Source: Nitrosospira multiformis ATCC 25196
GTDB lineage: Bacteria > Pseudomonadota > Gammaproteobacteria > Burkholderiales > Nitrosomonadaceae
Assembly (NCBI RefSeq): GCF_000196355.1
Contig: NC_007614.1
Coordinates: 690,001-722,000 of the forward strand
DNA length: 32,000 nt
Direction: 5' to 3'
Below the pieces are notes generated by a model. It saw only the letters and a list, made by a program, of their open reading frames with translations. It was not told the DNA's origin and did not search any database. Of the stretch, positions 5,199 to 25,309 are shown one piece after another (the first letter of the stretch is position 1; each line of letters starts with the position of its first letter). Both the position numbers and the translations under genes were made by a program.

Positions 5199-5348
5199 TA
5201 ACTATACTTAGGTCAGAATTCAGTACTTGTGAAACTGAATGAACTATGAGCTCTATGAGCTTTGTATCAGCAAGATTCCCCAGGCAAAATTTCCCTGGAT
5301 GGAAGGCTCTCACATAAACAATCAATAGTACAGCAAGACGGAGGATCA

Positions 5349-6932
5349 ATGATAAACAATAAGTTAATGACTCGTCTTCTGAAGTTCCTGTGGCGGATAG
5401 GCGAAAGCTGGCCGTGGTTGGGCAGGAAATTAAACGAATTTGCAATCAATCGGGTAGTAAATGTGTGCCGCCACCGGCCGCATCCGTGGAGCACCGTTCA
5501 CCCCTATACCTCTTGGACCTCACTTACAGATCAGCACTGGAGCGCACGCCATTTGCCGCCGAAGAAGCAGCCGGCACAGCTTCCGTCTTCCAGCGAACTA
5601 CTCGGGCTTTTCAGGCAGCAGGACGGAAAGCAGCGATTATCCGACAAATCGACCCTGCTTTTTCCCGCGGTTGCCCAATATCTGACCGACGGTTTTATCC
5701 GCACGCGCATGCCGCAGGCAGGAGAACCCGAGACAGTTCGACTGCAAAATACATCCAATCATCAGATAGACATGTGTCCGCTTTACGGAAGGCTGCCGGA
5801 GCAGACCGCCGCCCTTCGTCTCAAAAGCGAAACCAAGGGAGAACGGGGGCGATTGAAGTCGCAGTTTATCGCCAGGGAGGAATTCTCGCCTTTCCTTTTC
5901 GATAACGGGAAACCGAAGCAGGAATTTGCCGTTCTCGACGAGCCCCTTGGATTGGAGAGGGCGTTGGATAGAGTGCCCGAGCGCCGGGAAGAGTTGCAGG
6001 CTCATATTTTTGCCTTTGGAGGGGACCGAACAAATGCCGTTCCTCAGGTGGCGATGCTGAATACCTTGTTTCTGCGGGAGCATAACCGGCTTGCAGGCGA
6101 AATAGAACGGATGCATCCCCAGTGGGATGACGAGCGCGTCTTCCAGACCGCCAGGAATAACGTCATCGTGATATTCATCAAGATTATCGTGGAGGAGTAC
6201 ATCAGCCATATCTCTCCATTGGTGCCCTATCGGGCTGACCCTTCAGTGGCCTGGAATGCCCCGTGGAACAAACCGAACTGGATCACGACCGAATTCAGTT
6301 TGCTGTATCGCTGGCATTCACTCGTTCCGGATGCCATCACCTGGAACGGACACTTGTATCTCCTGGGAGAAACCTCCATGAATAACAAGCTGCTGCTGGA
6401 CGGAGGGTTGCGACGCGCCTTTGCCGACATGAGCAGCCAGCGTGCCGGTCGTCTCGGCCCCTTCAACACGGCGGAGTTCCTATGGGAAATCGAAACACGG
6501 GCAATAGAGCAGGGCCGTCTGGCAGAACTGGCACCCTATACGGATTACCGTCATTATGTTTCCCTGGAGCGTCCCCAGGATTTTGCAGATATCTCCACGG
6601 ACCCGCGAGTGGTCGATTTTCTGAGAAAGACGTACCGGCGCGTGGAGGACATCGATTTTTACGTCGGTCTGTTTGCCGAGGATCTGGTGGAAGATTCCCC
6701 CCTGCCGTCACTCATGCTCAGGATGGTGGCAGTGGATGCTTTTTCCCAGGCTTTGACCAATCCCTTGCTGTCACAGTACGTTTATAACGAAGAAACCTTT
6801 TCTGTTCCGGGCTGGGCGGCAATCCAGAGCACGGGAACACTTTGGGATGTTCTGGACAGGAACGCACCTTCCGATCAGCGTGGGGATTTATACATCGGCT
6901 TGACCTTGCCTGATTGGATGCCTTCTTCCTGA
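5349..6932 (+). CDS. Animal-haem-peroxidase family protein, cyclooxygenase/fatty-acid dioxygenase-like
   Basis: The translation is collinear with vertebrate COX-1 recalled from memory: [31 protein letters not shown] vs [43 protein letters not shown] vs [27 protein letters not shown] vs EFNHLYHWHPLMPD. The start at ATG 5349 is preceded by GGAGGA. Confidence 0.85.
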   Translation: [527 protein letters not shown]

Positions 6933-7160: not shown

Positions 7161-8495
7161 TCAGGGGCTCGTGGTCGAGATGAGAATGAGTTGCTTGATA
7201 AATTCGATAATGCGGCCGTCATCGATATGAGTATGATCCGTAATCAGGTTTTTATCGACTCTCGTAACGAGGTAGGGATTGCGTGGGGCGGATATATTGC
7301 TCCTTTCCAGTGTAAGGTTCGCAATAGGGATCTTGCTGCCAGGTTTGTCGTCTTCCCATGCGGACTTTGCAGCCAGGCCGGAACTGACACTCTCACTACT
7401 GCTCGATTGACCCGCAACTCCCTTTGGCAGAGCATGGGACGGATAGAGTCTGTGAGTCTCATACGGCTGGAAGAGGCCAACAGCGGTTACGTTTGCCTCG
7501 CCCTCGTCGATGATTTCTTCCTGTCCGGTTACGGCATTCGTTCGCCTGATGTCGCGATCTTTCTCAAAAAAGGTAGATAGATGGCGGCCAATGGGAAACG
7601 AGTTGCGAAGGGCCTTATCGGCCTCCGATGTTAGTATGGCCATGACAGGCAATTGGGACTTGAAGTAAGTGCCACGCTCCGTGGACATATCACTGAGCGA
7701 TGAAAATTGTAAGGCTTCGAAGGCGGGGTTTATGAGTACAACCAGATTCCCAAACCCTTCCACGTCGCTCTGCACGCCCACCGGCCCCATTGTGCGAACG
7801 AACCGATTTTCGAGTATTTGAACCAATGAGGCATGTACGATAGCTCCCCCGAAGCTGTGTCCGACAATTACCAGACGAGTATTGCTGTTACCCTCCGAAA
7901 CATTTTCCTTAACGCGCTTGAGTAGTTCGAGGCGGTTCAATACCTCAGTAACGCCGCCCCGGCTGACTTTCTGAGCGGTATTTTTCCGGTCCCAGAAGGT
8001 CAGGTCCTCAACCACGGGCATGGTAATGGACTCACCACGCCAGCCTAGATAAATACCGGCTACCTGTCGTGCCGGGCGCCCCGTTTTTTTGCTGATAAGA
8101 AGTTCGTTCTCACTCAACCCGGCAAGAACGTTACGAAAAGTCTGGATATTTTTGTCGGTATGCTTCGCATTATGCTTCCAGCCATGAACGAATACCGTTA
8201 TTAACAAATCTTTGCTGGCGGCTTCAGCCGAAAGCTTATCGATAACGGACCACATTTGCCTGCGATCCCAAAGCTGGCCCTGGTCATCGAATTCAATAAA
8301 ATTCAAGAGATAGCGCGCTCCATCTGCTGCGGGAAATTCCAGGATGGCGTGGTTTTCGCACTCCCGAGATAATTCCGAGGTCGGGTTAACGCATAAATCA
8401 TACTCCGTCCGATACTGTACAAACGGGGCACACCCGCCAAGTACCATCAGGAGAATGAGAACAGTGACATGCAATTCGACGGAGTGGAATTTCAT
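7161..8495 (-). CDS. Lipoprotein alpha/beta-hydrolase (DUF900-like esterase/lipase)
   Basis: The signal peptide ends in the lipobox LGGC. A nucleophile elbow is present (VGHSFGGA). The VFVHGW...WRG...FWDR arrangement resembles the DUF900 hydrolase fold. The sequence is visibly more AT-rich than the flanks. Confidence 0.7.
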   Translation of the reverse strand: MKFHSVELHVTVLILLMVLGGCAPFVQYRTEYDLCVNPTSELSRECENHAILEFPAADGARYLLNFIEFDDQGQLWDRRQMWSVIDKLSAEAASKDLLITVFVHGWKHNAKHTDKNIQTFRNVLAGLSENELLISKKTGRPARQVAGIYLGWRGESITMPVVEDLTFWDRKNTAQKVSRGGVTEVLNRLELLKRVKENVSEGNSNTRLVIVGHSFGGAIVHASLVQILENRFVRTMGPVGVQSDVEGFGNLVVLINPAFEALQFSSLSDMSTERGTYFKSQLPVMAILTSEADKALRNSFPIGRHLSTFFEKDRDIRRTNAVTGQEEIIDEGEANVTAVGLFQPYETHRLYPSHALPKGVAGQSSSSESVSSGLAAKSAWEDDKPGSKIPIANLTLERSNISAPRNPYLVTRVDKNLITDHTHIDDGRIIEFIKQLILISTTSP

Positions 8496-8827: not shown

Positions 8828-10189
8828 ATGGCATTAGCAAACGTATTCCGGCCCCACCCGTGGCAGAGCTTGCAGTCCAAACGGGGTGCTGTCGTGAAGC
8901 ATACTGAAAACGCTGGACATCAACTGGAACGACGTCAATTTATCGTCTCTACACTTTCGGCGGGATTCGCCATGACGGTAGGTCCGCTCTACGCCCAAGC
9001 CGTGCGGGACGGTGTCCAGATTTCTGTAAAGAATGGGGATCAGACCGCTCCTGGTCCTCGATCGCCGGGCGGACATACTTCGATCAAGTTATTTCTCTGT
9101 GGCGATGTCATGACGGGCAGAGGCATAGACCAGGTCTTGCCTCACCCCGGCAATCCCATTCTTTTTGAGGGGTACATGAAAAGCGCAACAGGCTATGTTG
9201 AGCTTGCCGAAGAGGCAAACGGGCCGATTCCGCACCCAGTCCCTTTTTCCTATATCTGGGGAGATGCGCTTGCCGAACTGGAGCGTAGAAAGCCCGATGT
9301 TCGCGTCATTAACCTCGAAACCGCGCTTACCCGTAGTGACGAAGTGCAGGACAAGGCAGTGAACTACCGCATGAATCCGGATAATATCCCCTGTATCACT
9401 GCCGCGAAGATCGATTGCTGCGTGCTGGCGAACAACCATGTTCTGGACTGGGGGTATGAAGGTCTCGCCGAGACGTTGAAAACGCTCAAACGAGCCGACA
9501 TAAAAATAGCTGGCGCCGGCTTAAACGTTCAAGAGGCGCGGCAACCCGCGGAGATGACAGTTCCCGGAAAGGGACGTGTACTGGTTTTCTCGCTCGGATC
9601 GGAAACAAGCGGCATACCCTGGAACTGGGCGGCTCGAACAGACCGGGCAGGCGTGAATCTGTTGCCGGATTTTTCAGCAAAAACGGTTCGGGAAATTCGC
9701 GACAGAATAAAGCAGGTCCGCCTGCCCGGTGACATTGTGGTTGCTTCAATCCATTGGGGTAATAACTGGGGTTATGCAATTCCAGTCGAGCAACAGGATT
9801 TTGCACACGGCCTGATCGATGAAGCGGGTGTTGACGTCATCCACGGCCATTCATCGCATCATGTGAAGGGCATCGAGGTTTACAGGGGAAAGCTCATTCT
9901 TTATGGATGCGGCGACTTCCTGAATGATTATGAAGGCATCTCAGGGCACGAGACTTATCGGGGTGACCTGACGTTGATGTATTTCGTGAGCGCGGAGCCG
10001 CAGACCGGCAAACTCGTCAGCCTGTCGATGGTGCTCATGCAGGTCAGGCATTTCAAATTGAATCGGGCATCTGATGTCGATGCTTCCTGGCTGAAGAATA
10101 TCCTGAACAGGGAGGGGAAGAAGCTGGGGACGTCGGTGGAACTGACGGCGGATAATACCTTGATGCTCCGATGGATGCTCCAAGGATAG
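8828..10189 (+). CDS. CapA/PGA_cap-family metallophosphatase with twin-arginine signal
   Basis: It has a Tat-like ERRQFIVSTLSAGFAMTVGPLYAQA signal. The motif series is GDVMTGRG, NLETA, ANNHVLDWG, IAGAG, SIHWGNNWGY and HGHSSHH. An AAGGTGGG RBS precedes the ATG. Confidence 0.85.
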   Translation: MALANVFRPHPWQSLQSKRGAVVKHTENAGHQLERRQFIVSTLSAGFAMTVGPLYAQAVRDGVQISVKNGDQTAPGPRSPGGHTSIKLFLCGDVMTGRGIDQVLPHPGNPILFEGYMKSATGYVELAEEANGPIPHPVPFSYIWGDALAELERRKPDVRVINLETALTRSDEVQDKAVNYRMNPDNIPCITAAKIDCCVLANNHVLDWGYEGLAETLKTLKRADIKIAGAGLNVQEARQPAEMTVPGKGRVLVFSLGSETSGIPWNWAARTDRAGVNLLPDFSAKTVREIRDRIKQVRLPGDIVVASIHWGNNWGYAIPVEQQDFAHGLIDEAGVDVIHGHSSHHVKGIEVYRGKLILYGCGDFLNDYEGISGHETYRGDLTLMYFVSAEPQTGKLVSLSMVLMQVRHFKLNRASDVDASWLKNILNREGKKLGTSVELTADNTLMLRWMLQG

Positions 10190-10424
10190 CACAAGTCAAA
10201 GATGATCTATGAAGGCAGCTCGCTGCTGTGGGGAACTGACTGTCATTGGGACTCGTACCACCCCTGATAATGAAAGAAACTATGGGGTGGAAGGCAGCGG
10301 GAGGAGGTCGCGCAATTTTCACCGGTGAGGCCACTCAGTTTGATTTTCTATCTGACCAGATTGATGCCCCATCAGGCAGTTGGTTCGGTCATCCTATTGC
10401 GGTAGGGATGATGTTAAATGCGAG

Positions 10425-10449
10425 TCCCTTGCCGCTCCGCAAGGGATTT
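10425..10449 (-). terminator. Hairpin just downstream of the cytochrome-porin gene (possible terminator)
   Basis: An 8-bp stem tcccttgc/gcaaggga with a 6-nt loop lies 17 nt after the stop at 10464. The U-tract on the minus strand is poor; a short TTT follows on the plus strand. Confidence 0.4.
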
Positions 10450-10463
10450 ATCCAGGAATCCCC

Positions 10464-11831
10464 TTAGAACGCCATCCAGCCGTTCAGATATACCGTATCG
10501 TTACCAGGCGCATTGCGGGAGAAGCCGTCATAATTGCGAAAACCTCCGTTGAACTGGAAGTAATGAATGTACTGCGCCGTAAGTTTGAGATTCGCAAACG
10601 TAGACAGGACGGAAGTACTCTTGCCGAATGGGATATAGCTCACCTCAACCGTAAATGCCTGACTATTTGGCTTGCCTGATAAACTGCCATCAATAGGATC
10701 GGGAGAGTATATGACATTATCCCGTGTGCCCGAGGTCTGGGCATACGCTAGATTGAGCGAATAAGTCTGGAGGAAAGTATATCCGCTTCTGACGCGAACC
10801 ACGTCCAGGCTTCCATGTCTTTTTTCTGCAAATCCCAATCCCACGCTGGCATTCAGGTCGCGGTGCTCCCGGATGTAAGTGGCATTGAGTTCAAGGATAT
10901 GCCTGGGATTCGCCAGATATTGGTAGGTGGCGTCAAACCCGAAATCGGTGTACTGGTCGGTACTCGCACCTTGAATCCGCTGTGGATTGGCATTTGCTCT
11001 CATGCCGAAGGAGCCGATGGCACCGTAATGGCCTTGCCAGTTGTTTTGTAGCGCCACCCGCCCGTAAGGCGCACCGCCATCGATCCGGTTTTGTCCCGCG
11101 TCAAACGTTCCAATCCCTTGCTGAATGTTCCGCGGAAGGCTGGTGTAGCCCCCTCCCTCAACGTATAACATATCATTCCACATCGTATAGACCGTTGCAC
11201 CGACGACTTGGCTGCCAAGAGACTCAATGAATAGTCCCGCAGCAGGGGTGGGGGCAAGTGGGGATGACGCCCAAGGGAAACCCCAGGCAGGAGTGGTGTT
11301 CCAGAGATCCTGAACGGTAGGGTTATTATTCACAGAAATGCCATAAACGAGGCGATTACCGGCCAGGTCGGCCCCATTGGCAAAACGAATATCGGTGTTA
11401 TCGAGCGCTCCCGTATTGCTTACGCCATCATAGGTCCCCTGCGCGAAAGCGCCGATTTTGGACGTAATGCGGCCAGCATAAAAAATCGAGGCTTCGTCGA
11501 TAGTTGCGTTATTGTTGGGGCCGAAGCGGTCAGCCGCGCCGCCAAGCTGGCCGTTATTGGTATGGGTAAACGAGCCGCGTATCATGCCAGTGATCGGGAT
11601 GAATTTGGTTCTATCGGGGTTCACATCGGTGTAACCGGATAGCTTGAAATTGCGTCCGATAGACGTAAGGAGCGGTCCAAAAGCCTGCACATGGCAGGTG
11701 CTGCACGGCATGCCGGTCTGGCGCGCAAAGCTGGGCACCGCTTTGACTTCGGCGCTTGATAGCGTAAGGAGCATTCCCGCCAGGATAAGAACGGGAGAGA
11801 TAACGCTTCTGGAGATGAGCATTTCCCGCAT
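10464..11831 (-). CDS. Outer-membrane beta-barrel protein with a single N-terminal CxxCH haem motif (Cyc2-like fused cytochrome-porin)
   Basis: A signal peptide (..LSSAEVKA) is followed by VPSFARQTGMPCSTCH. The next ~400 aa are rich in alternating aromatic/polar strands, and the protein ends ...YLNGWMAF (terminal Phe, an OMP signature). I am confident this is a real gene. The Cyc2 assignment is from remembered family architecture only. Confidence 0.6.
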   Translation of the reverse strand: MREMLISRSVISPVLILAGMLLTLSSAEVKAVPSFARQTGMPCSTCHVQAFGPLLTSIGRNFKLSGYTDVNPDRTKFIPITGMIRGSFTHTNNGQLGGAADRFGPNNNATIDEASIFYAGRITSKIGAFAQGTYDGVSNTGALDNTDIRFANGADLAGNRLVYGISVNNNPTVQDLWNTTPAWGFPWASSPLAPTPAAGLFIESLGSQVVGATVYTMWNDMLYVEGGGYTSLPRNIQQGIGTFDAGQNRIDGGAPYGRVALQNNWQGHYGAIGSFGMRANANPQRIQGASTDQYTDFGFDATYQYLANPRHILELNATYIREHRDLNASVGLGFAEKRHGSLDVVRVRSGYTFLQTYSLNLAYAQTSGTRDNVIYSPDPIDGSLSGKPNSQAFTVEVSYIPFGKSTSVLSTFANLKLTAQYIHYFQFNGGFRNYDGFSRNAPGNDTVYLNGWMAF

Positions 11832-12308
11832 CTGGCGGTTCCAGCGCTAAATACTCGAGTGGACTATAGGACTAAAGCATAGTAAATGTTGAGAAAATGT
11901 CCAGTTGAATGCACTGAAATTGTGAAGCTTAACCGCATCCACCAGTGGGATGCGTGGCACGTCAAAAACGCGCAAGAAGGATGTCGGTGATGCCCAATGG
12001 TTGGCAATGCTGGCGTGTGTTGGTCTGCTGCGTGGAAAAAGTGAGCGAAAAGCTTTGGAGAGGGGTGCAGGTATTGGGCCAGGAATCGGAACGCTGTATT
12101 CAAGCCGAGCCCACCAGCAAACAGGGAGAAGAAATTAGGCTGGCTTGGCTGATGTAGAGTACCGGGAATTGGCCTTCGGTTGCAATTTAGGTGTAATCGC
12201 GGCAGGCAGGGCGCCAAAATTCCCTGCTTAATGCAATCCACGATACTAAAATTTCCAATAAGAGATATCCATCTATCCACAGCGCAGCGAACCATTGGGG
12301 AGGTGCAC

Positions 12309-12911
12309 ATGAACACACATTCTGATTCAGCGGCGCAGACAGACCCTCGCCGGTCTTATTTGACCTTCCAGGATATTCTGGAAACGGTGAGCCACGAACC
12401 AGGGCAAGGCCATTTGCTTGAGCAAATCGAAAAAATTGTAAGGGTCCAGCAGCGGGAACGCTTATATGGCATTCTGTCGCAAATCTCGGAAGACCAACTC
12501 CTGCCTGTACAGGTCTTGCTCGAGCGCGACCTGCCGCAGAGGGGAAAATGCAATTCGGCCTATAACCGCTTTCGTATTCCATCCTGGAAAAGATACGACG
12601 ACATCTATTGGCAATCGCTAATCGACTATACGATCCTTGCGCTTCGCACATTCAAGGAAATCGACTTCTGCGCGATTCGCGGGAAGCTCGTGCTGCATTA
12701 TTTTGATATTCCCGGTGGGACGTCCCGAGTTCAAGATGTCATCCGAAGACTGGTCTGGCTGATCGATAATGACCATTTGTCCGTCGACTTTACGCGATCC
12801 CGTTGGATGGAAAGCTGGAGTCATACTGTGGCAAGCATGAGCCGTGAGGAAATATTCACGGCTGCCAGCATCGTCGAGGTCGCCCCTAAATTGTTGCTGA
12901 GTGGAGAATAG
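12309..12911 (+). CDS. Hypothetical protein, no recognised domain
   Basis: A 200-aa ORF starts at ATG 12309, preceded by GGGGAGG, and has coding-like composition. It ends 32 nt before the MaoC-like gene on the same strand. Confidence 0.5.
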   Translation: MNTHSDSAAQTDPRRSYLTFQDILETVSHEPGQGHLLEQIEKIVRVQQRERLYGILSQISEDQLLPVQVLLERDLPQRGKCNSAYNRFRIPSWKRYDDIYWQSLIDYTILALRTFKEIDFCAIRGKLVLHYFDIPGGTSRVQDVIRRLVWLIDNDHLSVDFTRSRWMESWSHTVASMSREEIFTAASIVEVAPKLLLSGE

Positions 12912-13507: not shown

Positions 13508-13688
13508 TCATGATTCACGAATAGAATCAGATGTGATTGACAATCCCGAGCTGAGCGAGAAGGAAGGAAATGCTCAGTGGGGTTTTCTTAGGGCATTTCT
13601 CGAACTCATCTATATTTATGAATACAGCTGACTAGGGCCTGTTCACAGTAGTTGATTTGTGTTTACATCCGGAATTTGGATGTGGGTC

Positions 13689-14443
13689 ATGGATCGGGAC
13701 ATGTTGAGCGATGCGCAGTGGGCTCGTATTTCGGGACTATTGCCGGGCAAGCCAACCGACAAGGGAGGGCGAGCGGCGGATAACCGGTTGTTCGTTGAGG
13801 CGGTGCTATACACGGCGCGGGTTGGAAACCCCTGGCGCGACCTGCCGCCGAAGTTTGGGAACTGGCATTCGGTGTATGTGCGCTTCGCGCGCTGGGAAGC
13901 CAACGGCGTGTGGTCGCGTGTTGCCGAAGCGCTCCAGGGCGAGGCCGATCTGGAAGAGCTATTCATCGACTCAACCGTCGTGCGTGCGCACCAGCACTCG
14001 GCTGGCGCGTCAAAAAAAACGGTAGCGATCAGGCGATCGGCCGCTCGCGTGGTGGGCTGACTACCAAGATCCATGCATGCGTGGATGCCTTGGGCAATCC
14101 ATTGCGCCTGATCCTCACCGGTGGCCAAGTAGCCGACATTACACAAGGGCCCGCACTGATCAATTCCATCAAGACTGATGCAGTTGTCGCCGACAAGGGA
14201 TACGACAGCCACGTGTTCGTCGCAGTGATCACCGAGACGGGGGCTGAGGCCGTCATCCCGTCTCGGAGCAACCGATGCGCCTCGCGCGAGTTCGATCGGG
14301 AGCGGTACAAAGCGCGTAACCTGGTGGAGCGATTCTTCAATCGGCTCAAACAATTTCGTCGCCTCGCGACCCGCTACGACAAACTCGCCAACCGCTTCAA
14401 TGCTTTCTTGCATCTGGCTTGCGCCTACATCTGGCTACTGTGA
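13689..14443 (+). CDS. IS427-group DDE transposase, OrfA-OrfB joined by programmed -1 frameshift
   Basis: OrfA reads MLSDAQWARISGLLPGK...NRLFVEAVLYTARVGNPWRDLP (DUF4096-type N-terminus). OrfB reads GRSRGGLTTKIH...ADKGYDS...RYKARNLVERFFNRLKQFRRLATRYDK (DDE_Tnp_1). The frames overlap at the A8 run 14012-14019 and OrfB is in the -1 frame. The start could be 13689 or 13701. Confidence 0.9.
14012..14019 (+). other. Slippery A8 heptamer-type -1 ribosomal frameshift site of the IS transposase
   Basis: In the OrfA frame tca aaa aaa acg reads SKKT. Shifted by -1 it reads V KKN GSD, which continues the conserved transposase sequence. Confidence 0.7.
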
Positions 14444-14601
14444 ACACGCTCTAGCCCCTATGCTTTACGGATGCGAAAAACTACCGGCTTGTCTCCAGGA
14501 AGATCCGGGAGAACAAATGACAGCCCTCTTTTGATTATGGATATGTCACGAGCAGCTGACAAGCAAACAACGTGATGCCCTGAAGATCAACCATGCGTGG
14601 C

Positions 14602-14883
14602 TCAGTCGCCATCCTCATTCTCCTGCGCAAGTTGCGACTTGAGATGATAGGCATCGATGTCAAAGTCTCTGCTGTCCGAGACCGCGGCCAGTACTAGGGG
14701 TGTAACGCGCTCCCGCTCCTCCTCGGTCTCGAAGTTTGTGAAGTTGGCCGCAGCTGCCTCGGCGAACAGTTTCTCCGACAGCCGCTTTGCCTTTACTTCA
14801 TAACTCTCTATGTCGGAATTGGCGCCGGGAGGGATGTTTTCCTCGATCCATGTCTTGGCCCACCTCAGGAAGCGATTGCTCAT
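14602..14883 (-). CDS. Small acidic protein, DUF768-like
   Basis: 93 aa from ATG 14883, with a G-rich RBS upstream. The N-terminus MSNRFLRWAKTWIEENIP... and acidic C-terminus resemble DUF768 proteins as I recall them. It sits between IS fragments. Confidence 0.45.
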   Translation of the reverse strand: MSNRFLRWAKTWIEENIPPGANSDIESYEVKAKRLSEKLFAEAAAANFTNFETEEERERVTPLVLAAVSDSRDFDIDAYHLKSQLAQENEDGD

Positions 14884-15129
14884 GACTGCCCCCCATCTTC
14901 TGTGTTGAGTTCGGCGCCCGTCGCCCCTCATGGGAGCATTTTACTCATGATAAAATAGGTTATCAACTGTAAAAATCCACGTAAACTCGTCCTCATTTCT
15001 ATCTTAAGTGAGTTCTTGCTGGGAAAACACGGATATTAGCTTGAGGAGGAAGGTTAATCATGCCTGATGGAAGTAAGCCTCAATAAGCGCTTAATTTTTT
15101 CGGGTACTTTATGAGATTCTTTCTTTTTT

Positions 15130-15601
15130 ATGAAGGATTTGTTTTACCTGTCGGAAACACAGTTCAACCGTATAAAGCCATATTTTCCCTTGTCTCACGG
15201 GTTCCCCGGGTTGATGATCTGCGGGATCATCTACGTGATCCGCAATGGCCTGCAATGGAAAGATGCGCCCAGGGAATACGGGCCGCACAAGACACTGTAT
15301 AACCGTTCGTGCGCTGGAGCCGACTGGGCGTGTTCAACCGCATCTTTGCGGAACTGCCTGGTAAAGAGGAAACGTCCGACCGCTGGTAATCGATTCCACG
15401 CCTCTTAGGGCCCACCCACGGTAGCCAGCCTGCTAAAAGAGGGGATGTTCCCCGCCCGGTCGCACGAAGGGCGGCCTGAACTCGAAGCTTTATGTGGTCT
15501 GCCACGCTAGGGGAAGCCTGTGGCCATGCTCCTGTCGAGGCGCAGATGAGCGATTACAAGGGAGCACGTGTGCTGCTGCCGTCATCTTCTATCTCAATTA
15601 A
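15130..15601 (+). pseudogene. IS427-group transposase pseudogene
   Basis: The N-terminus MKDLFYLSETQFNRIKPYFPLSHG is followed by frame switches (PRVDD in another frame, then IIYVIRNGLQWKDAPREYGPHKTLYNR). Later remnants read GRTKGGLNSKL..., MSDYKGA and a terminal VIFYLN*. In-frame stops are present and the DDE core (D..GYD..RYDR) is missing, which indicates an internal deletion of ~350 bp. Confidence 0.75.
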
Positions 15602-15617
15602 TGAGTCCTTAACCTAG
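15596..15617. repeat. IS terminal inverted repeat (right end)
   Basis: aattaatgagtccttaacctag is the inverted partner of 13486-13507. The transposase remnant's stop lies at or inside this repeat. Confidence 0.7.
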
Positions 15618-15619
15618 AT

Positions 15620-15916
15620 TCAGTCGGGATCAACAAAACCGCCTTGACCTACCCGACCGCCCTCAGGCGGCTGGCCACCTTTATAATTCTCGGTCTTCAT
15701 CAGCTCTTGCTTTGATTTCTTCTTTTCCTTTTTTTTTGCTTCGTTTGTTGCATCACTCTTATTCGAAAGCTTTTCTTCGGTTACTACCGGTTTTGGCGTA
15801 TTTTCACCGTTAATATTTTGCGACTGGGCATTTACCATACTTATGGAGCCCAGAAGCAGGGTGTTAAAAACAATTGCTTGAAGCTTTTTACTTCCAAAGG
15901 AAAAGAGATGGTTCAT
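15620..15916 (-). CDS. Small secreted Lys-rich protein (hypothetical)
   Basis: A strong AAGGAG RBS precedes ATG 15916. The signal peptide reads ...ISMVNA/QSQ. The mature part is low complexity (KKKEKKKSK, GGQPPEGGRVGQGG). The surrounding patch is AT-rich. The stop lies 2 nt from the IS end. Confidence 0.55.
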   Translation of the reverse strand: MNHLFSFGSKKLQAIVFNTLLLGSISMVNAQSQNINGENTPKPVVTEEKLSNKSDATNEAKKKEKKKSKQELMKTENYKGGQPPEGGRVGQGGFVDPD

Positions 15917-16087
15917 GGCGGCTCCTTTATTTAACTTTTAACTCACTTCATTCAGATGCATTTCTACTATGGATTACGAATTTGCGACGAAGGGACCGAC
16001 TTGAGTTTGCCGGGTGAATCCACTCCGCCCCCTTCATGAGTAATGCATTAAGGACTGATCCAGTGTGATTCAAAGAATCTCTGGCGA

Positions 16088-18080: not shown

Positions 18081-18094
18081 GCCTTTCCTGAATA

Positions 18095-18275
18095 AAGTCC
18101 CCGCAAATGCCGTCAGGTCGTTTATCTTGAACCTTAAGGTTCAAGGTGGTCACTCGCCGGATGCATCAGGCACTTCCGCATGGGACGCGCACAACAGCAT
18201 CACTTTGGTTCGCAACCGGTTCTCAAAAAGTTGGTTCAAAGAATATAGACCTTGACAAACACCGCAGGGAACAAC
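18095..18275 (-). ncRNA. ssrS: 6S RNA
   Basis: It lies immediately downstream of zapA on the same strand, the conserved proteobacterial position. The minus strand reads 5' GUUCCCUGCGGUGUUUGUCAAGG ... CACCUUGAACCUUAAGGUUCAAGAUAAACGACCUGACGGCAUUUGCGGGGAC 3'. That parallels E. coli 6S (..CACCUUGAACCAAGGGUUCAAGGGUUACAGCCUGCGGCGGCAUCUCGGAGAUUC). The 5' and 3' ends pair to form the closing stem. Length is ~180 nt; the ends are accurate to about 5 nt. Confidence 0.7.
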
Positions 18276-18868: not shown

Positions 18869-19020
18869 GGCACTATAGTTTGGAAATCCTCAGTCAGTCA
18901 ACTACTAACCTGGTCTTTCGAATATGGCTCCAGGAAAGGTGTGGAATATATGAGACAGCTCAGCTTCCGGCAAGGGTTTTCAATCATTTCGCATGATTTA
19001 TTCTACGGTTCTGGTAGAAT

Positions 19021-19245
19021 GCCGCCTCGTTTGAGGTGCCTGATCGCTTCCGCGGTCGGGTTAAACGGGAACCAGGTCAGAGATCGATGAAGGTCTCCGG
19101 ATGCCTGGGCTGCCCCCGCAACGGTAAGCAGGCGTGGACGTATCAGGGAAGCTTCTCAAGGTTTCCTAATGCCACTGTGAATTCTTCAATTCATGGGAAG
19201 GCGATACGTCAAATCCTGCGAGCCCGGATACCGGCCTCGGATGCG
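19021..19245 (+). promoter_or_regulatory. Cobalamin (B12) riboswitch
   Basis: The conserved core elements appear in order: gttaaacGGGAAccaGGTcagA..., cctgGgCTGcCCCCGCAACGGTAAgc, GCCACTG...GGGAAGGC, and the B12-box-like gAGCCCGGATACCGGCC. This parallels the E. coli btuB leader recalled from memory. A possible extended -10 promoter (TGgTAGAAT, 19012-19020) lies just upstream. The element sits 5' of a TonB-dependent receptor. Confidence 0.85.
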
Positions 19246-19361
19246 TACGGACATATCGCGTGGGGCGGTATCCGATCGATATTTCTTTCGTTCGAAGCTC
19301 CCACGATATTTTCCTGTTTCCTTGTTCTCACGGCGGGGATGCATATTCCCGGGCAATTATC

Positions 19362-21428
19362 ATGGGTTTGTTTCGCAGGCATCTCTTGCCATGGATGTTT
19401 ATTTCCGTTCCTTCAGGGGCTCTTGCCGTATCCAGCGATCCGGCGGAGAGATTGCTCCCTGATGTCGTTGTCACAGCAACCCGCTTCAGCGAGTCCATCG
19501 ACAAACTGCCCAGCGGAGTTTCCATCGTCAATGCGGAACAGATCAGAAACAGCGCCGCTACGACTTTGCCGGAGTTGCTGCAACAACTGTCTGGCATACA
19601 CACGAGAAATGTCGATGGCAGCCCCGACCCACAGATCGATATACGCGGATTTGGTATCACCGGCGACCAGAACACCCTGGTTTTGCTGGATGGTCAACGC
19701 ATGAACGAAAATGAATTGACCGGTATCCGCTGGTCGACGATTCCTCTCGATACTATCGAACGCATCGAAGTATTGCACGGCAGCGGTAGCGTCGTTTATG
19801 GAGCAGGAGCCACCGGGGGTGTCATCAATATCGTTACACGCGCTGCCAAGCCGGGTCGCATATCGGGTACGGGGGGAGTTTCCTTCGGCAGCTACAGCGG
19901 CACGGAATTCAACGGAACGTTCAACGCGGCAGGAAACAACGTTGGGCTGGCGCTCACGGCCAATGCGTTGCGAACAGATAACTACCGCGTGAATAACGCG
20001 TTGCGTCAATCGAATCTGCAGGGCGATCTGCGTTACCTGTTCAGCAGCGGCAGGGCGTTGCTGAAGTTCGGACTGGATGATCAGAAGCTGGAACTCCCTG
20101 CCAATCGCACTGAAGCACAGTTGCAAACCGACCGGAAAGGCACCTCGACTCCTCGCGATTTCAGCACCCGCCAAGGTGCCTACGTCACACTGAGAGGAGA
20201 GAAAGAGACGGAATTCGGTGATCTTGCCGCGGACCTTTCATTTCGGGACAACCACCGTACCGCATTATTCGACGATTACAATCTGGACGGCTTCAACGCC
20301 AAAACATTCGTCAATTCCCGCTCAGACCAGTGGCTGTTCAACCCGAGGATGAAGCTGCCCTTTGCGGCTTTCGGCATGGAGCACGAACTGGTACTGGGCG
20401 TGAATTTCGAATGGTGGGATTATCGATCGAGACGGTTTACCGGACCGGAAACAGTACCAGGTTCGGCATCCGCCGATATCCCGAGAACGGATGTAGTGGC
20501 GACCCAGCTAAACCGTGCCATTTATTTTCAACACGCCTCCACTTTACCTAAAGGTACCGTTGTCAGCCTTGGAGGGCGACTGCAATGGGTAGACAACCGG
20601 GCGAATGACCGTTTCAATCCCGCTGTCTACGCCAGCGGCCGGCAGAGCCGTATGGTTTATGCCTATGATGCAGGTCTTCGCCAGCCTCTGGGGGAAGCTT
20701 TTTCGGCCTATGGCAGATTTGGGCGCAGTTTCCGGATAGCGACAGTGGACGAAAACTACAACCAGTTTGGCGGTCCAATGTTCGATTCCATAGTGAAGAT
20801 TCTCGAACCGCAAACTGCCCATACTGGGGAGCTCGGACTGGATTACAAGCAGAAGTCCCTACGTGCGCGCGCTTCGCTTTACCGCACCAACCTCAACAAT
20901 GAAATCAGCTTCATAAACATAGACCCATTCCTGTTTTTTGCCAACGTCAATCTGCCGCCCACGCGACGGCAAGGTTTCGAGCTGGAAGGTTCATGGACGG
21001 TAACGGGCGCACTCGATATATTCGGCAGCTATACGTTTATCGATGCACGCTTTCGGAAGGGAGACTTTGGCGGTGTGGATGTATCCGGAAATCTCGTTCC
21101 GCTGGTGCCGCGCCACAAGGTCTCAGCGGGTGGTACATACCGGTTGGGATCCAGTACCCGTGCGGCAGTAGTCATGAATTATGTAGGTGAACAGGTTTTC
21201 GATAACGATCAAGCCAACACCGCCACGGGTCGTATGCCGGATTATGTCACGGTAGATCTCAAGGTGACTCATCAGATGAGGAAACTGCTGTTGAGCATGG
21301 CGGTGAACAACCTGTTTGATGAAAAGTATTTTTCCTATGCCATTCGCAATTCAGCGGGTACGAGCTTCAGTGCGCTACCTGCCCGGGAACGCAACGTCTG
21401 GCTGACGGTAAAGTATCAATTCGACTGA
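19362..21428 (+). CDS. TonB-dependent outer-membrane receptor, BtuB-like by riboswitch context
   Basis: A signal peptide is followed by a TonB-box/plug start DVVVTATRFSE. Plug motifs are present (RGFG...TLVLLDG, IERIEVLHGSGSVVYG), followed by a long beta-barrel. The start at ATG 19362 is preferred over 19260. Confidence 0.9.
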   Translation: MGLFRRHLLPWMFISVPSGALAVSSDPAERLLPDVVVTATRFSESIDKLPSGVSIVNAEQIRNSAATTLPELLQQLSGIHTRNVDGSPDPQIDIRGFGITGDQNTLVLLDGQRMNENELTGIRWSTIPLDTIERIEVLHGSGSVVYGAGATGGVINIVTRAAKPGRISGTGGVSFGSYSGTEFNGTFNAAGNNVGLALTANALRTDNYRVNNALRQSNLQGDLRYLFSSGRALLKFGLDDQKLELPANRTEAQLQTDRKGTSTPRDFSTRQGAYVTLRGEKETEFGDLAADLSFRDNHRTALFDDYNLDGFNAKTFVNSRSDQWLFNPRMKLPFAAFGMEHELVLGVNFEWWDYRSRRFTGPETVPGSASADIPRTDVVATQLNRAIYFQHASTLPKGTVVSLGGRLQWVDNRANDRFNPAVYASGRQSRMVYAYDAGLRQPLGEAFSAYGRFGRSFRIATVDENYNQFGGPMFDSIVKILEPQTAHTGELGLDYKQKSLRARASLYRTNLNNEISFINIDPFLFFANVNLPPTRRQGFELEGSWTVTGALDIFGSYTFIDARFRKGDFGGVDVSGNLVPLVPRHKVSAGGTYRLGSSTRAAVVMNYVGEQVFDNDQANTATGRMPDYVTVDLKVTHQMRKLLLSMAVNNLFDEKYFSYAIRNSAGTSFSALPARERNVWLTVKYQFD

Positions 21429-21714
21429 GCCCCTGAGCATTTGAGTGTGCCCCCTTCCGGCTCCGCCAGGTCACGCGCCCACGCTCCGGTCGCCATTTGG
21501 CTGCCTTTCCCGAGCCTTCTGGCATCGTTCCCATGTAAATTGTCGGCCTGTACGCGCATCGCGCGCGTTCTGATCATTCTGATTTCGCCAGCAATGAGCC
21601 GTGCGAGGGGTTTACAAAGATTGCCTGAACTCCCGTTGCTTTCCACACTTTATCCCCCGCCAAGGCGAGTGCCATAATACGGCTTTTGCCAAACCTGCCG
21701 CATCTGCTCCCACA

Positions 21715-23586
21715 ATGCGGCCTGTACGTCTCATGCAAAATACACAAAATACCGGCGCCCGACAGTTATGCCTGCGCCTGACGAGATACGTTGCGCCGTA
21801 CTGGGACGCGATCATCCTTGCAACAGGGTGCATGATCGCGACAGCGGCGACCGTTCCCATGCTGGCGGCGTTGATGCAGCCGACCATGGACGAAGTTATC
21901 GCGAACAGGAACCCCGAGTTGCTGCAACTCGTGCTTTTGGGAATCATCAGCTTGTTTGCAGTGCGCGCAGTAGCCGGACACCTCGCGACTTACGTACTCC
22001 ATTGGGCGGGCAGCAAACTGGCAGTGGATTTACTCTGCGAGATATTCGACAAGCTGCTCGTATTGCCGCATTCGTATTACGAATCCTGCCCCGGCAGCAA
22101 TCACATTTCGGTCGATCATGTCTCCAGGATAACATCGGATGCTCCGGAGGTAGCGCGCGCTTTTGTCAACGTGATGACGGTCATGATCAGAGACACATCC
22201 ACCGTCATTGGCTTGCTTGGCTGGATGTTTTATCTCAATTGGCCGCTTGCCCTGCTGATTTTGTTGATGTCATCGGTGATTCTGCTGGTCACGCAATTGC
22301 TTGGAGAGCGGCTGCGGGAAATGGGACGGGAAAGCGAGCGAGCGATAGAGGGTCTCACCCGGATTCTGAAGGGCGCTGCACTGAACTTCATGGTGGTCAA
22401 GCTCTATGGCGGTGAGCAGTATGAGAACCAGCGCATGAGGGAACAGGCGGAGGAGGCACGCCGATTTTTCATGAAGCGGGCTGCTGTTGCCTCTCTTTAT
22501 GTTCCCTTGATACAAACCATTGGTGCTGCCGCTATAGTCCTCACCCTTTATTTTGCCGCAAATGAAGCAGTCGCCAGTGAACTCACGACAGGAAGCTTTG
22601 CTTCTCTTATTACGGCCATTCTGCTGCTGATTGTTCCGGGGAGGCGAATAGCTGAAGTGGGAGGAACCTTCCAGCGCGGGCTGCTCGCGGCTGGAAGCCT
22701 GTTCTCGTTACTTGACGGGGAAGTGGAATCGGAGACAGGAACCGTCGTGATTCAGCGGGTGCGTGGAGAGCTGCAATTCGAGGAAGTCGGCTACGGCGAA
22801 CGTACAGAGCGTAATCCAGGCACCTCGTTAAAGGTTCGCTCCCTGGGGAATTCCGATCCTGCAGCAGTACTGAGACGTGGACTAAATTCCGGATTGCATG
22901 ATGTTACCTTGATCATTCAGCCGGGCGAGACGGTGGCGGTGGTTGGCTGCGCGGAAACCATGGATGTACTTACGTATATGGTGCCGCGTTTCCTTACTCC
23001 CACATCCGGGAGAATTCTCCTGGACGGACATGATCTCAGGAGCATCACGCTGGCGAGCTTGCGGGCCAACATTGCATTAGTATCTCCGCACACGACGCTG
23101 TTCAATGACACTGTCGCGGCGAATATTGCATATGGTGCAATGGGGCGGGCCACTGAAGCACGGATTACGTGGGCAGCTCGCGCTGCTCATGCATCCGAGT
23201 TCATCCGGAAGCTGCCGGATGGGTTGCAGACTATGGTCGGGGATGGCGGCGTAGAACTCCCCGTGAGTCAGCGGGTGCGCATCGCCGTTGCGCGGGCGCT
23301 TCTGAAAAATGCACCTCTATTGATCCTGAACGAGAAGCTGGGAATGCTCGAGCCGGATTCTGTGCCTCTTGTGCAGGCAGCATTCGATACCGTGATGCAA
23401 GGTCGTACCACGTTCGTTATTGCAGATCGTTTATCCACTCTGGAGAAAGCAGATCAGGTTGTCATGGTGGACAAGGAGCGCATTGTGGACAGGGGCTCAC
23501 ATCGGGAGCTGATGGCAAGAGATGGGGCTTATACCCGGTTGATCCGCAGAGTATTCGGTTCAAAAACTGCGGTAGCCGCCCGGTAA
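21715..23586 (+). CDS. MsbA-like ABC exporter half-transporter (TMD-NBD) with degenerate nucleotide-binding motifs
   Basis: The TMD is collinear with MsbA (six helices, ...YGGEQYENQR... region). The NBD scaffold is conserved (LDGHDLRSITLASLRANIALVSP..LFNDTVAANIAYG), but the Walker A, signature, Walker B and H-loop motifs are all replaced (see findings). The start is uncertain (21715 or 21733; no clear RBS). Confidence 0.88.
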   Translation: MRPVRLMQNTQNTGARQLCLRLTRYVAPYWDAIILATGCMIATAATVPMLAALMQPTMDEVIANRNPELLQLVLLGIISLFAVRAVAGHLATYVLHWAGSKLAVDLLCEIFDKLLVLPHSYYESCPGSNHISVDHVSRITSDAPEVARAFVNVMTVMIRDTSTVIGLLGWMFYLNWPLALLILLMSSVILLVTQLLGERLREMGRESERAIEGLTRILKGAALNFMVVKLYGGEQYENQRMREQAEEARRFFMKRAAVASLYVPLIQTIGAAAIVLTLYFAANEAVASELTTGSFASLITAILLLIVPGRRIAEVGGTFQRGLLAAGSLFSLLDGEVESETGTVVIQRVRGELQFEEVGYGERTERNPGTSLKVRSLGNSDPAAVLRRGLNSGLHDVTLIIQPGETVAVVGCAETMDVLTYMVPRFLTPTSGRILLDGHDLRSITLASLRANIALVSPHTTLFNDTVAANIAYGAMGRATEARITWAARAAHASEFIRKLPDGLQTMVGDGGVELPVSQRVRIAVARALLKNAPLLILNEKLGMLEPDSVPLVQAAFDTVMQGRTTFVIADRLSTLEKADQVVMVDKERIVDRGSHRELMARDGAYTRLIRRVFGSKTAVAAR

Positions 23587-23824
23587 ACTGCAACAGATCA
23601 TGGACGTTCTATCTGCCATGAGGCTTAGGCTCGGAACCCACTACGCCCAGAAATATTTCTGTCGGTATTTGTCAGCTCATAGATGCCCTGAGGGGAAAGC
23701 GCGAGCATCATCTTCTACATTGCCGGAGCCGTTTCCGTTCAATCAAGCGCGAGTACGGATACATCCAAGACGAGTTTCTGTCGGTGGCGCGGAAGATTGC
23801 ATGAGAAACTTTCATTGAGCTTGC

Positions 23825-23835
23825 GGGGGGGGGGG
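23825..23835. repeat. G11 homopolymer tract
   Basis: Eleven consecutive G in a non-coding or decayed region downstream of the ABC gene. Confidence 0.95.
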
Positions 23836-25309
23836 CAGTTGAAGTGAGCTTTATTCTGACTGAGGAAAGGACAACGTTTTCTGGCTGTCTTGAAGGAGGA
23901 AAAGCTGTAACTATTTAGTGTCGAGTTCCCAGTGGAGCCCAGGACTTTATCCAGATAACTGCGGCGCTTTTGCAAGGAACCGATTTGCGAGTCACTCTGG
24001 CTCTTCGTGAGTGGACAGGGGAAAATTTGCCATCTTCATTACGGCAGGCATGGCGAAATTAATGGAGTAATCCTGTCGGACGGCACGAGTGTCCGCTTTC
24101 CGCGCGAAGTATTACCAATTCGAGCCAATGTTAAAAGTCGGACAGAGCATTACGGCATCGGGCTACGGCACCAAAATCAATTCGCCCAAGCACTAGAGGC
24201 ACCCAGCTAGGCTTTTCAGGGCAACAGGATAGTCTCTCGTATTCCTCAATATCCCCGATGTGGAGCAAGGAATAGCTTGCCGATGTTGCGTCAGCCGAGA
24301 GTCAACCTAATATACCTGTCCCGCTTTCAAGAAGCTGGATTCAGAGCGTTAATATCTGTTCTGCATTAGGCTGCCGGTACCTCATCTTATGGCTCCCTTT
24401 AGGGTTTAGGGGCGTGGAAAGATTGCTACCTTTAACCGGCTATTGGCATGAGGGAAACCTTAAATTCGAAAAAGCATCCAGTCTGGTTAAATTTGTATAC
24501 GCATATTCGAACTTTCAGGCTGCACCCCACCTCACCGGCTTTAGTCGGTAGTTATTGGGCGAATTATTGGGCAAATACCCTATCAAACAAGAAAAACACG
24601 GTCCACTGACGTGGTGGAACTTATCATCATCTCGTGCCCCTCCATCTTGAATGCAAGTGAATACTGGGAACTGGAGAAGGTGAGGTTACGAACAGAACTT
24701 CAAACATCCTGGAGTTATTATGCGTTCAGCAGGCAAAAAATGTCCTGCTGCTGTTGAATTCTGTAAACAGAGTTTTATCTGCAGTACATGGAGAACAAGC
24801 AATCATTATTTTTCTCGAACATGGAACAGCATAGGTTTCAATGCTACAAGTTTTTACCGGTACACCTACAGCCAGGCCCTAGTTAAACCACTCTATTCAA
24901 GGCTTGGAGTTTTTCTACAGAGGAAGGGCCAGGAGTAGATTTCTGCTTTGTTATCCACCTCCGTTACTCCATTACCCTTCAATGTCAAAATCCTTATGGA
25001 GGGCTTTCGTGTTTATCAAGGATAGCGAATAGCGAAACAGCCTGTTTCTACGCTTACTCCAGCTGGGTGTGGATGCTCCTTGTTCGTTTCGCAACTGGTT
25101 TCTCCGGTCATAAGCTCCAACTAAGGACACGATCAGGAGCAACGCTACTGTGCTGCTACGAATACATGGGACAGGGATAGTCGCGTTTATTCCCGTACCT
25201 GAAGTCCGCGTGCCCATTAAATATGTTTATATCGAAAATCACAGATTGATTCGTCCCGATCAGGAAGAGGAAAGGACAGATAGAGCATGGATAAGAAAAA
25301 CGAAAAAGC

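Follow-up and report, generated by a model that had tools for sequence, protein, structure and literature searches.

Cyc2 proteins are fused monohaem cytochrome-porins, and both the architecture of the family and its wide spread beyond iron-oxidising bacteria are established in the literature. In the definition of Keffer et al. (2021, PMC8406198), a Cyc2 protein carries a signal peptide, a single CxxCH motif, an AxPxFAR[Q/K][T/Y] motif upstream of it and a PxL motif downstream of it, is at least 365 amino acids (aa) long and forms a 16-strand barrel resembling OprO/OprP; the AxPxFAR[Q/K][T/Y] motif is said to be unique to Cyc2. The three members of the family that have been tested biochemically all oxidise Fe(II), and a soluble substrate is suggested by the presence of only one haem and by the narrowness of the barrel (Keffer et al. 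2021, PMC8406198). Here, we describe a cyc2 gene in Nitrosospira multiformis ATCC 25196, an ammonia oxidiser, based on the analysis of 32,000 nucleotides (nt) of its genome (positions 690,001 to 722,000 of contig NC_007614.1), which we refer to as the window.

The Cyc2 homology of N. multiformis is already tabulated. In a list of homologues of the Acidithiobacillus ferrooxidans Cyc2 from bacteria not known as Fe(II) oxidisers, the orthologue from N. multiformis Nl4 (455 aa) appears with 30.08% identity and an E-value of 2.9e-40, and the same table includes N. lacus APG3, Nitrosomonas sp. Is79A3, Nm120 and several methanotrophs (He et al. 2017, PMC5566968, Suppl. Table 2). In the literature that we searched, this supplementary table is the sole record of a nitrifier Cyc2, with no main-text discussion or test of such a protein.

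Architecture and motifs of the Nitrosospira Cyc2

The predicted protein is identical to the 455-aa product called on the NCBI assembly GCA_900108135.1 (contig FNVK01000035.1), and its domains are listed in Table 1. By heuristic inspection, the N-terminus is Sec-like, showing a basic n-region (R2 and R8) followed by a hydrophobic core (aa 9-24) and, at aa 29-32, an A-x-A-like VKA/V junction. The corresponding junction in the Cyc2 of Mariprofundus ferrooxydans, SEA/IPAFARQ, is equivalent to VKA/VPSFARQ, and in the AlphaFold model a helix at aa 11-24 lies inside the predicted signal peptide. The mature protein begins with the haem-binding domain. The only two cysteines of the whole protein, C43 and C46, are both located in its single CxxCH motif (context AVPSFARQTGMPCSTCHVQAFGPLL), which thus stands near the N-terminus as in the published definition. 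Upstream of the haem site, AVPSFARQT at aa 31-39 corresponds to AxPxFAR[Q/K][T/Y], with A31 being the last residue of the signal peptide, and ends three residues ahead of C43, the same spacing as in the Cyc2PV-1 peptide QTGAACLSCH. Downstream of it, the PxL motif is represented by PLL at aa 53-55. With 455 residues the protein is well above the published minimum length, and it terminates in YLNGWMAF with Phe as the last residue.

The haem site is strictly conserved. CxxCH and its flanking motif were retained in all 114 proteins that possess an N-terminus among the top 120 homologues, the remaining six being N-terminally truncated fragments, and A31, P33, Q38, C43, C46 and H47 were invariant in an alignment of 65 sequences. 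Because the motif is kept together with its flanks in every full-length homologue of this set and is invariant in the alignment, it is not a chance feature, and a plain porin that happens to contain a CxxCH was ruled out on the same grounds. The gene as a whole is under strong purifying selection, with a ratio of nonsynonymous to synonymous substitution rates (dN/dS) of 0.14 relative to the same-species locus L002 and of 0.06 relative to locus L003.

An AlphaFold2 model was built with the 65-sequence alignment and reached a mean predicted local distance difference test score (pLDDT) of 86.5 and a predicted template-modelling score (pTM) of 0.83. In the model, short N-terminal helices are followed by exactly 16 beta strands. 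The helices of the haem domain, at aa 34-39 and aa 57-64, are short and have pLDDT values of 71-88. When the model was compared with the PDB using Foldseek, 16-strand porins were recovered, including Omp32 (E 2.4e-9) and OmpF, as well as OprP (2o4v, E 2.4e-8, rank 8) and OprO (4rjx, E 4.3e-7, rank 29). OprP and OprO are also the templates reported for Cyc2 by Keffer et al. (2021, PMC8406198), and the predicted barrel is thus of the 16-strand OprO/OprP-like type. Pfam and NCBIfam scans of the 455-aa protein returned no family match, porin families included, and searching the PDB by sequence likewise yielded no hit at E<=10.

The first-pass annotation, made from the DNA letters and their open reading frames (ORFs), had described the product as a Sec signal peptide followed by a lone CxxCH in a Cyc2-like FARQTG..C..CH context and by porin-like beta sequence ending in NGWMAF, and had called it a Cyc2-like fused cytochrome-porin. 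This description agrees with the translation and with the n/h/c layout of the N-terminus seen on heuristic inspection, AVPSFARQT and CSTCH fit the definition of Keffer et al. (2021), and the predicted structure consists of a 16-strand barrel with a small N-terminal helical domain. Besides a predicted beta-barrel, it had named two observations on which the assignment would depend, a CxxCH in close orthologues and a significant match to Cyc2. The former was seen in all full-length orthologues, and the latter is described below.

Homology and position within the Cyc2 family

In order to compare the protein with a biochemically characterised Cyc2, a query of concatenated Cyc2PV-1 peptides identified by mass spectrometry (Keffer Table S1) was used to retrieve a Cyc2 from M. 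ferrooxydans. The retrieved sequence is a close relative of Cyc2PV-1, containing several of the PV-1 peptides, some of them with one or two substitutions. BLASTP aligned aa 30-131 of the window protein to it with 37% identity (E 1e-14). Profile comparison by hhalign of the window family with 38 Cyc2 sequences from Zetaproteobacteria gave a probability of 99.5% and an E-value of 3.5e-23 over 315 columns, and because the match is of this length, the homology reaches well into the barrel. Motifs, length, predicted barrel and the homology to Mariprofundus agree in this respect, and by its sequence the protein truly belongs to the known Cyc2 family.

Within the family, the nearest relatives at species level are an N. 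multiformis metagenome-assembled genome (MAG, 96% identity), other Nitrosospira (77-87%) and Nitrosomonas (63-67%). Global identity to Cluster 1 Cyc2 proteins is 21-23%, and neither Gallionellaceae nor Zetaproteobacteria were found among the 80 nearest species; on these two observations, membership of the Cluster 1 iron-oxidiser clade was rejected. Published identities are 18-23% between Cyc2 clusters and 27-30% between the A. ferrooxidans Cyc2 and its own cluster mates. Since identity to the A. ferrooxidans protein is 30%, compared to 21-23% to Cluster 1, the window protein probably belongs to Cluster 2 in the scheme of McAllister (2020) and Keffer (2021). An exhaustive search of representatives clustered at 50% identity gave 2,467 clusters at E<=1e-3, 1,202 at E<=1e-10 and 449 at E<=1e-30, and its sequence relationships suggest that the protein lies in the large and functionally least-verified part of the Cyc2 family.

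A neighbour-joining tree of the 80 nearest species homologues and Cluster 1, which is a distance tree only and carries no support values, placed Nitrosospira and Nitrosomonas in a single, monophyletic clade, with the Cyc2 homologues of Methylococcales methanotrophs as its sister and a long branch separating all of these from Cluster 1. A Bacteroidetes homologue (L081) was basal. The nitrifier clade is hence sister to Methylococcales and not to other Betaproteobacteria in this unsupported tree, a topology that may reflect an exchange of the gene between ammonia oxidisers and methane oxidisers.

Genomic context of cyc2 and of its relatives

The downstream neighbour of cyc2 is a PGA_cap gene at 8828-10189 (+), which is convergent with it, while the upstream neighbour at 12309-12911 (+), encoding a 200-aa protein, is divergent and also occurs at the same-species locus L002. 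Because both immediate neighbours are on the opposite strand, cyc2 is monocistronic. The surrounding genes are unrelated to it and of housekeeping or miscellaneous function, comprising purE, purK, purC, an EVE-domain protein, a MaoC dehydratase, an "animal" haem peroxidase, a lipase-like hydrolase, the PGA_cap protein and the 200-aa protein, for which neither Pfam nor NCBIfam gave a family. A six-frame scan of the window revealed no other genuine CxxCH-bearing gene; three further CxxCH matches were alternative frames of real genes. These results bear out what had been annotated at first pass, namely a monocistronic gene, flanked by an upstream non-coding region of about 480 bp (477 bp by gene coordinates) and with no adjacent periplasmic cytochromes.

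In the upstream gap, the NCBI gene calls include a 55-aa ORF at 11990-12157 (+), and a second ORF of 65 aa at 10270-10467 (+) overlaps the cyc2 stop. No supporting evidence was found for either of them, and both are probably over-calls. Two overlapping sigma-70-like sites precede cyc2 (Table 1), although the number of promoter-like sites in the gap does not exceed the shuffle expectation and is weak evidence. The upstream region aligns only with the same-species locus L002, so its conservation is uninformative. Eighteen nt past the cyc2 stop, between the convergent genes, an inverted repeat without a T-run is present. No intrinsic terminator was called downstream of cyc2 by the terminator scan, and the repeat could possibly act as a weak bidirectional terminator.

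Among relatives outside the nitrifiers, a gene for a redox carrier was found near the cyc2 homologue in 50 of 71 loci, about 0-600 nt away and mostly on the same strand. The carriers include class I and dihaem cytochromes c, cytochrome b561, azurin-like cupredoxin and high-potential iron-sulfur protein (HiPIP), in addition to DUF2231-cytochrome c fusions and multihaem cytochromes (with 10 haems in locus L020 and 5 haems in L059). Precedents for such neighbourhoods are the cyc2-cyc1-rus arrangement of A. ferrooxidans and the cyc2-HiPIP cluster of Bradyrhizobium, and because the relatives adjoin carrier genes in the same manner, an electron-transfer role for the family is supported. The adjacent electron-carrier gene that is typical of Cyc2 iron-oxidation operons, but does not define the protein family, is absent at the window locus. 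The nitrifier Cyc2 clade has uniformly lost, or never had, adjacent carrier genes, and the genes flanking cyc2 in nitrifier loci are not conserved between species.

In 17 loci of Methylococcales, a gene for a conserved protein of ~245-260 aa comes after the cyc2 homologue, on the same strand in 14 of them and convergently in three. The copy in locus L011 combines a hydrophobic segment at the N-terminus with three more at the C-terminus, and its only CxxCH (CIKCH) lies in the loop. No Pfam or NCBIfam family was found for this protein, and it was absent from the nitrifier loci. Judging from these sequence features, it may serve the methanotroph Cyc2 as a dedicated electron acceptor in the inner membrane.

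Proposed function and alternative explanations

We propose, with a probability of roughly 0.55, that the Nitrosospira protein is a Cyc2-family outer-membrane gate for single electrons, most probably from Fe2+, whose partners are encoded elsewhere. We infer haem incorporation, outer-membrane location, direction of electron flow and substrate as follows. The barrel would sit in the outer membrane, with the haem domain plugging or capping its periplasmic mouth. A small dissolved reductant, by family precedent most probably Fe2+, would enter the pore and give one electron to the haem, which would in turn hand it to soluble periplasmic carriers. Ammonia oxidisers have an unusually rich periplasmic pool of c-type cytochromes, and the partners in nitrifiers would be drawn from this pool and encoded away from cyc2.

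Several observations weigh against this proposal. Keffer et al. (2021, PMC8406198) regard the function of Cyc2 outside the well-supported iron-oxidiser clades as uncertain, and Fe(II) oxidation by the nitrifier clade would be an extension from the family. Hence, where the protein had been matched at first pass to the outer-membrane iron oxidase, membership of the Cyc2 family stands by sequence and model, whereas the oxidation of Fe(II) is carried over from other members. No report of lithotrophic Fe(II) oxidation by nitrifiers was found in the searched literature. An adjacent redox carrier was seen in none of the ten nitrifier-clade loci, as opposed to 50 of the 71 loci elsewhere (Fisher p 2.4e-5), and no Fur-box-like site was found upstream of cyc2, where the best match (11/19) equalled that of shuffled sequences. 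In the haem domain, no distal haem ligand (Met or His) is conserved between the window family and Cluster 1. M83 varies hardly at all in the window family but is not kept in Cluster 1; K63 is invariant in the alignment of the window family, and in the Cluster 1 consensus a K likewise comes after the invariant GRxF. Furthermore, PLL starts five residues past H47 and not four as published, because of a one-residue insertion (G52); this five-residue spacing is usual among the top homologues listed, with a spacing of three in a few of them, such as P0091 and the L081 protein.

The same structure might also work in the reverse direction, as an outlet for electrons from the periplasmic cytochrome pool when oxygen is scarce, with extracellular Fe(III), Mn(IV), oxidised humic substances or electrodes as acceptors. 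We consider this unlikely. Nitrosomonas communis kept its activity on a poised anode and outer-membrane haem staining was reported, and a monohaem Cyc2, if this species encodes one, would have been missed there because this study of extracellular electron transfer considered multihaem cytochromes only, screening for those with at least two haems. For Methylobacter and Methylotenera that carry Cyc2 and live in anoxic bog water, an outlet role has been proposed (He et al. 2019), which is of relevance here in that methanotroph homologues form the sister clade in our tree, and the 10-haem and 5-haem cytochromes adjoining some relatives would likewise suit electron export. On the other hand, reverse operation has been shown for no Cyc2 and, following the argument of Keffer, a solid acceptor lies out of reach of one haem placed at the periplasmic mouth of so narrow a 16-strand barrel, so that only soluble acceptors or shuttles would work. 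In our judgement somewhat less probable still is an inward gate for a donor other than iron, either reduced humic substances and dissolved organic matter or Mn(II). In Methylobacter sp. S3L5C, addition of dissolved organic matter raised cyc2 expression along with faster methane consumption, but this is a correlation in expression only and concerns another clade at ~45% identity, and a porin-sized pore would probably not admit molecules as bulky as humic substances. For Ca. Manganitrophus, a homologue of Cyc2 has been proposed to act as the Mn(II) oxidase; that protein is, however, a member of Cluster 3. Additional functions of Cyc2 are allowed for by Keffer et al. (2021, PMC8406198).

The fold of the protein matches general porins and a dedicated partner gene is absent at the nitrifier loci, as would be expected of an ordinary diffusion porin whose haem motif is vestigial or serves a non-respiratory purpose (sensing, iron or haem handling). 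It is, however, very improbable that the protein is such a porin: thousands of homologues show little or no variation in CxxCH and the 30-residue motif around it, a conservation that exceeds that of the barrel, cyc2 is under strong purifying selection, the relatives are systematically linked with electron carriers, and the Pfam porin families do not match. A broader and rather doubtful idea is that the Cyc2 proteins of nitrifiers and methanotrophs form a distinct functional subgroup, a general "electron valve" in the outer membrane of bacteria whose monooxygenases need O2. If so, Nitrosospira and Nitrosomonas could exchange electrons with dissolved iron, iron chelates or humic shuttles where oxic and anoxic zones meet. 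That they lack a dedicated partner gene would then be explained by the protein plugging straight into the periplasmic c-cytochrome pool, and the electrode activity and outer-membrane haem staining reported for N. communis might depend on this protein as the outer-membrane component so far missing.

Other features of the window

The remaining features of the window are included in Table 1. A cobalamin riboswitch is followed directly by a TonB-dependent receptor and then by a fused ABC transporter, and this set looks like an ordinary B12-uptake unit. The haem peroxidase and the adjoining hydrolase are syntenic in the N. multiformis MAG (L002), and neither has an NCBIfam match. Two regions, 14444-16087 and 23622-25309, are ~1.6-1.7 kb each and have no ORF of at least 120 aa in any frame; no Rfam family or tRNA was found within them.

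Table 1. Coordinates of cyc2, its parts and further features of the window; the last row refers to methanotroph loci.
Feature	Position	Strand	Basis
Cyc2-family fused monohaem cytochrome-porin, complete coding sequence (ATG start, 455 aa plus stop)	10464..11831	-	ORF list, translation
Predicted signal peptide, aa 1-31, cleavage VKA/VPSFARQ	11739..11831	-	Heuristic sequence inspection
Small haem-binding (cytochrome) domain, aa 32-79 (~48 residues)	11595..11738	-	Sequence, 65-homologue alignment, published motif definition
CxxCH haem c attachment site, TGC AGC ACC TGC CAT = CSTCH, aa 43-47	11691..11705	-	Direct reading of sequence
Predicted 16-strand outer-membrane beta-barrel (porin) domain, aa 80-455	10467..11594	-	AlphaFold2, Foldseek vs PDB
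Divergent intergenic region upstream of cyc2, 477 bp	11832..12308	.	Gene coordinates
Two overlapping sigma-70-like sites, 30-70 nt upstream of cyc2	11903-11876, 11892-11863	-	Promoter scan
Perfect 8-bp inverted repeat TCCCTTGC / GCAAGGGA, 6-nt loop	10425..10446	.	Inverted-repeat search
Bacterial "animal haem peroxidase" family member	5262-6932	+	PF03098, E 5.9e-43
Lipase-like alpha/beta hydrolase, adjoining the haem peroxidase	7161-8495	-	
256-aa protein without Pfam/NCBIfam family	13643-14413	-	
6S RNA (SsrS) gene	18094-18273	-	Rfam RF00013, 70.4 bits, full length
Cobalamin riboswitch	19017-19253	+	RF00174, 89 bits
TonB-dependent receptor, Plug and barrel domains, directly downstream of the riboswitch	19260-21428	+	
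Fused ABC transporter, after the TonB-dependent receptor	21601-23586	+	
Methanotroph cyc2-linked ~250-aa protein	L011:7563-8342; equivalents in L012, L014-L019, L021-L026, L029, L032, L033	+ (L011)	

Significance

Cyc2 is used as a metagenomic marker gene of microbial iron oxidation, for example in FeGenie, and a conserved Cyc2 in cultured nitrifiers such as N. multiformis shows the reach of this marker beyond the iron oxidisers. The first-pass annotation had raised the possibility of an unappreciated capacity for extracellular electron transfer should the host be an ammonia oxidiser. The host is indeed an ammonia oxidiser, but "unappreciated" is too strong, as the homologue has stood in a published table since 2017 and N. 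communis has been reported to perform extracellular electron transfer. The additions made here are modest and consist of the monophyly of the nitrifier clade and its sister position to the methanotrophs, the lack of adjacent carrier genes and the purifying selection on cyc2. N. multiformis can be cultured and is thus an organism in which the function of a poorly verified part of the family may be tested. If the protein moves electrons across the outer membrane of nitrifiers, the nitrogen cycle would be linked with that of iron (or of humic substances) in soils, and the protein could also help to explain how obligate aerobes survive at low oxygen.

Comparison with described systems

MtrAB, MtoAB and PioAB serve the same general purpose, in that electrons cross the outer membrane by way of a c-type cytochrome housed in a barrel. 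These systems are composed of two proteins, a 26-strand barrel and a decahaem cytochrome, whereas the window protein is one polypeptide with 16 predicted strands and one haem site; an Mtr/Pio-type complex was rejected on the numbers of strands and haems. Omp32, OmpF, OprP and OprO are the best structural matches to the barrel, but share only ~10-15% sequence identity in the Foldseek matches and are devoid of a haem domain.

Much closer are the Cyc2 homologues of methanotrophs (Methylobacter, Methylomonas, Methylomicrobium and others), already called cyc2 in the literature, which have 45-48% identity to the window protein and the same length and motifs. Their loci differ from those of nitrifiers, 17 of them carrying the ~250-aa protein with one CxxCH that the nitrifier loci are without. 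The A. ferrooxidans Cyc2 shares the architecture of signal peptide, one CxxCH with a PxFARQT motif and fused barrel, and in published BLAST results the identity of the Nl4 orthologue to it (30.08%) is near the 27-30% that it shows to its own cluster mates. It differs in that its gene heads the rus operon (cyc2-cyc1-cox-rus) and in that it works at pH ~2, whereas the host of the monocistronic Nitrosospira gene is a neutrophilic nitrifier. Cyc2PV-1 of M. ferrooxydans is a Cluster 1 protein and a biochemically shown Fe(II) oxidase with a midpoint potential (Em) of 208 mV. The Mariprofundus Cyc2 also has a 16-strand barrel, and although overall identity to the window protein is only 21-23%, the sequences of the haem domains can be superimposed almost completely (AVPSFARQTGMPCSTCHVQAFGPLLTSIGRNFK in the window protein and AIPAFARQTGAACLSCHFQTF-PALNSFGRAFK in Mariprofundus), the insertion of G52 ahead of PxL being the only structural difference between them.

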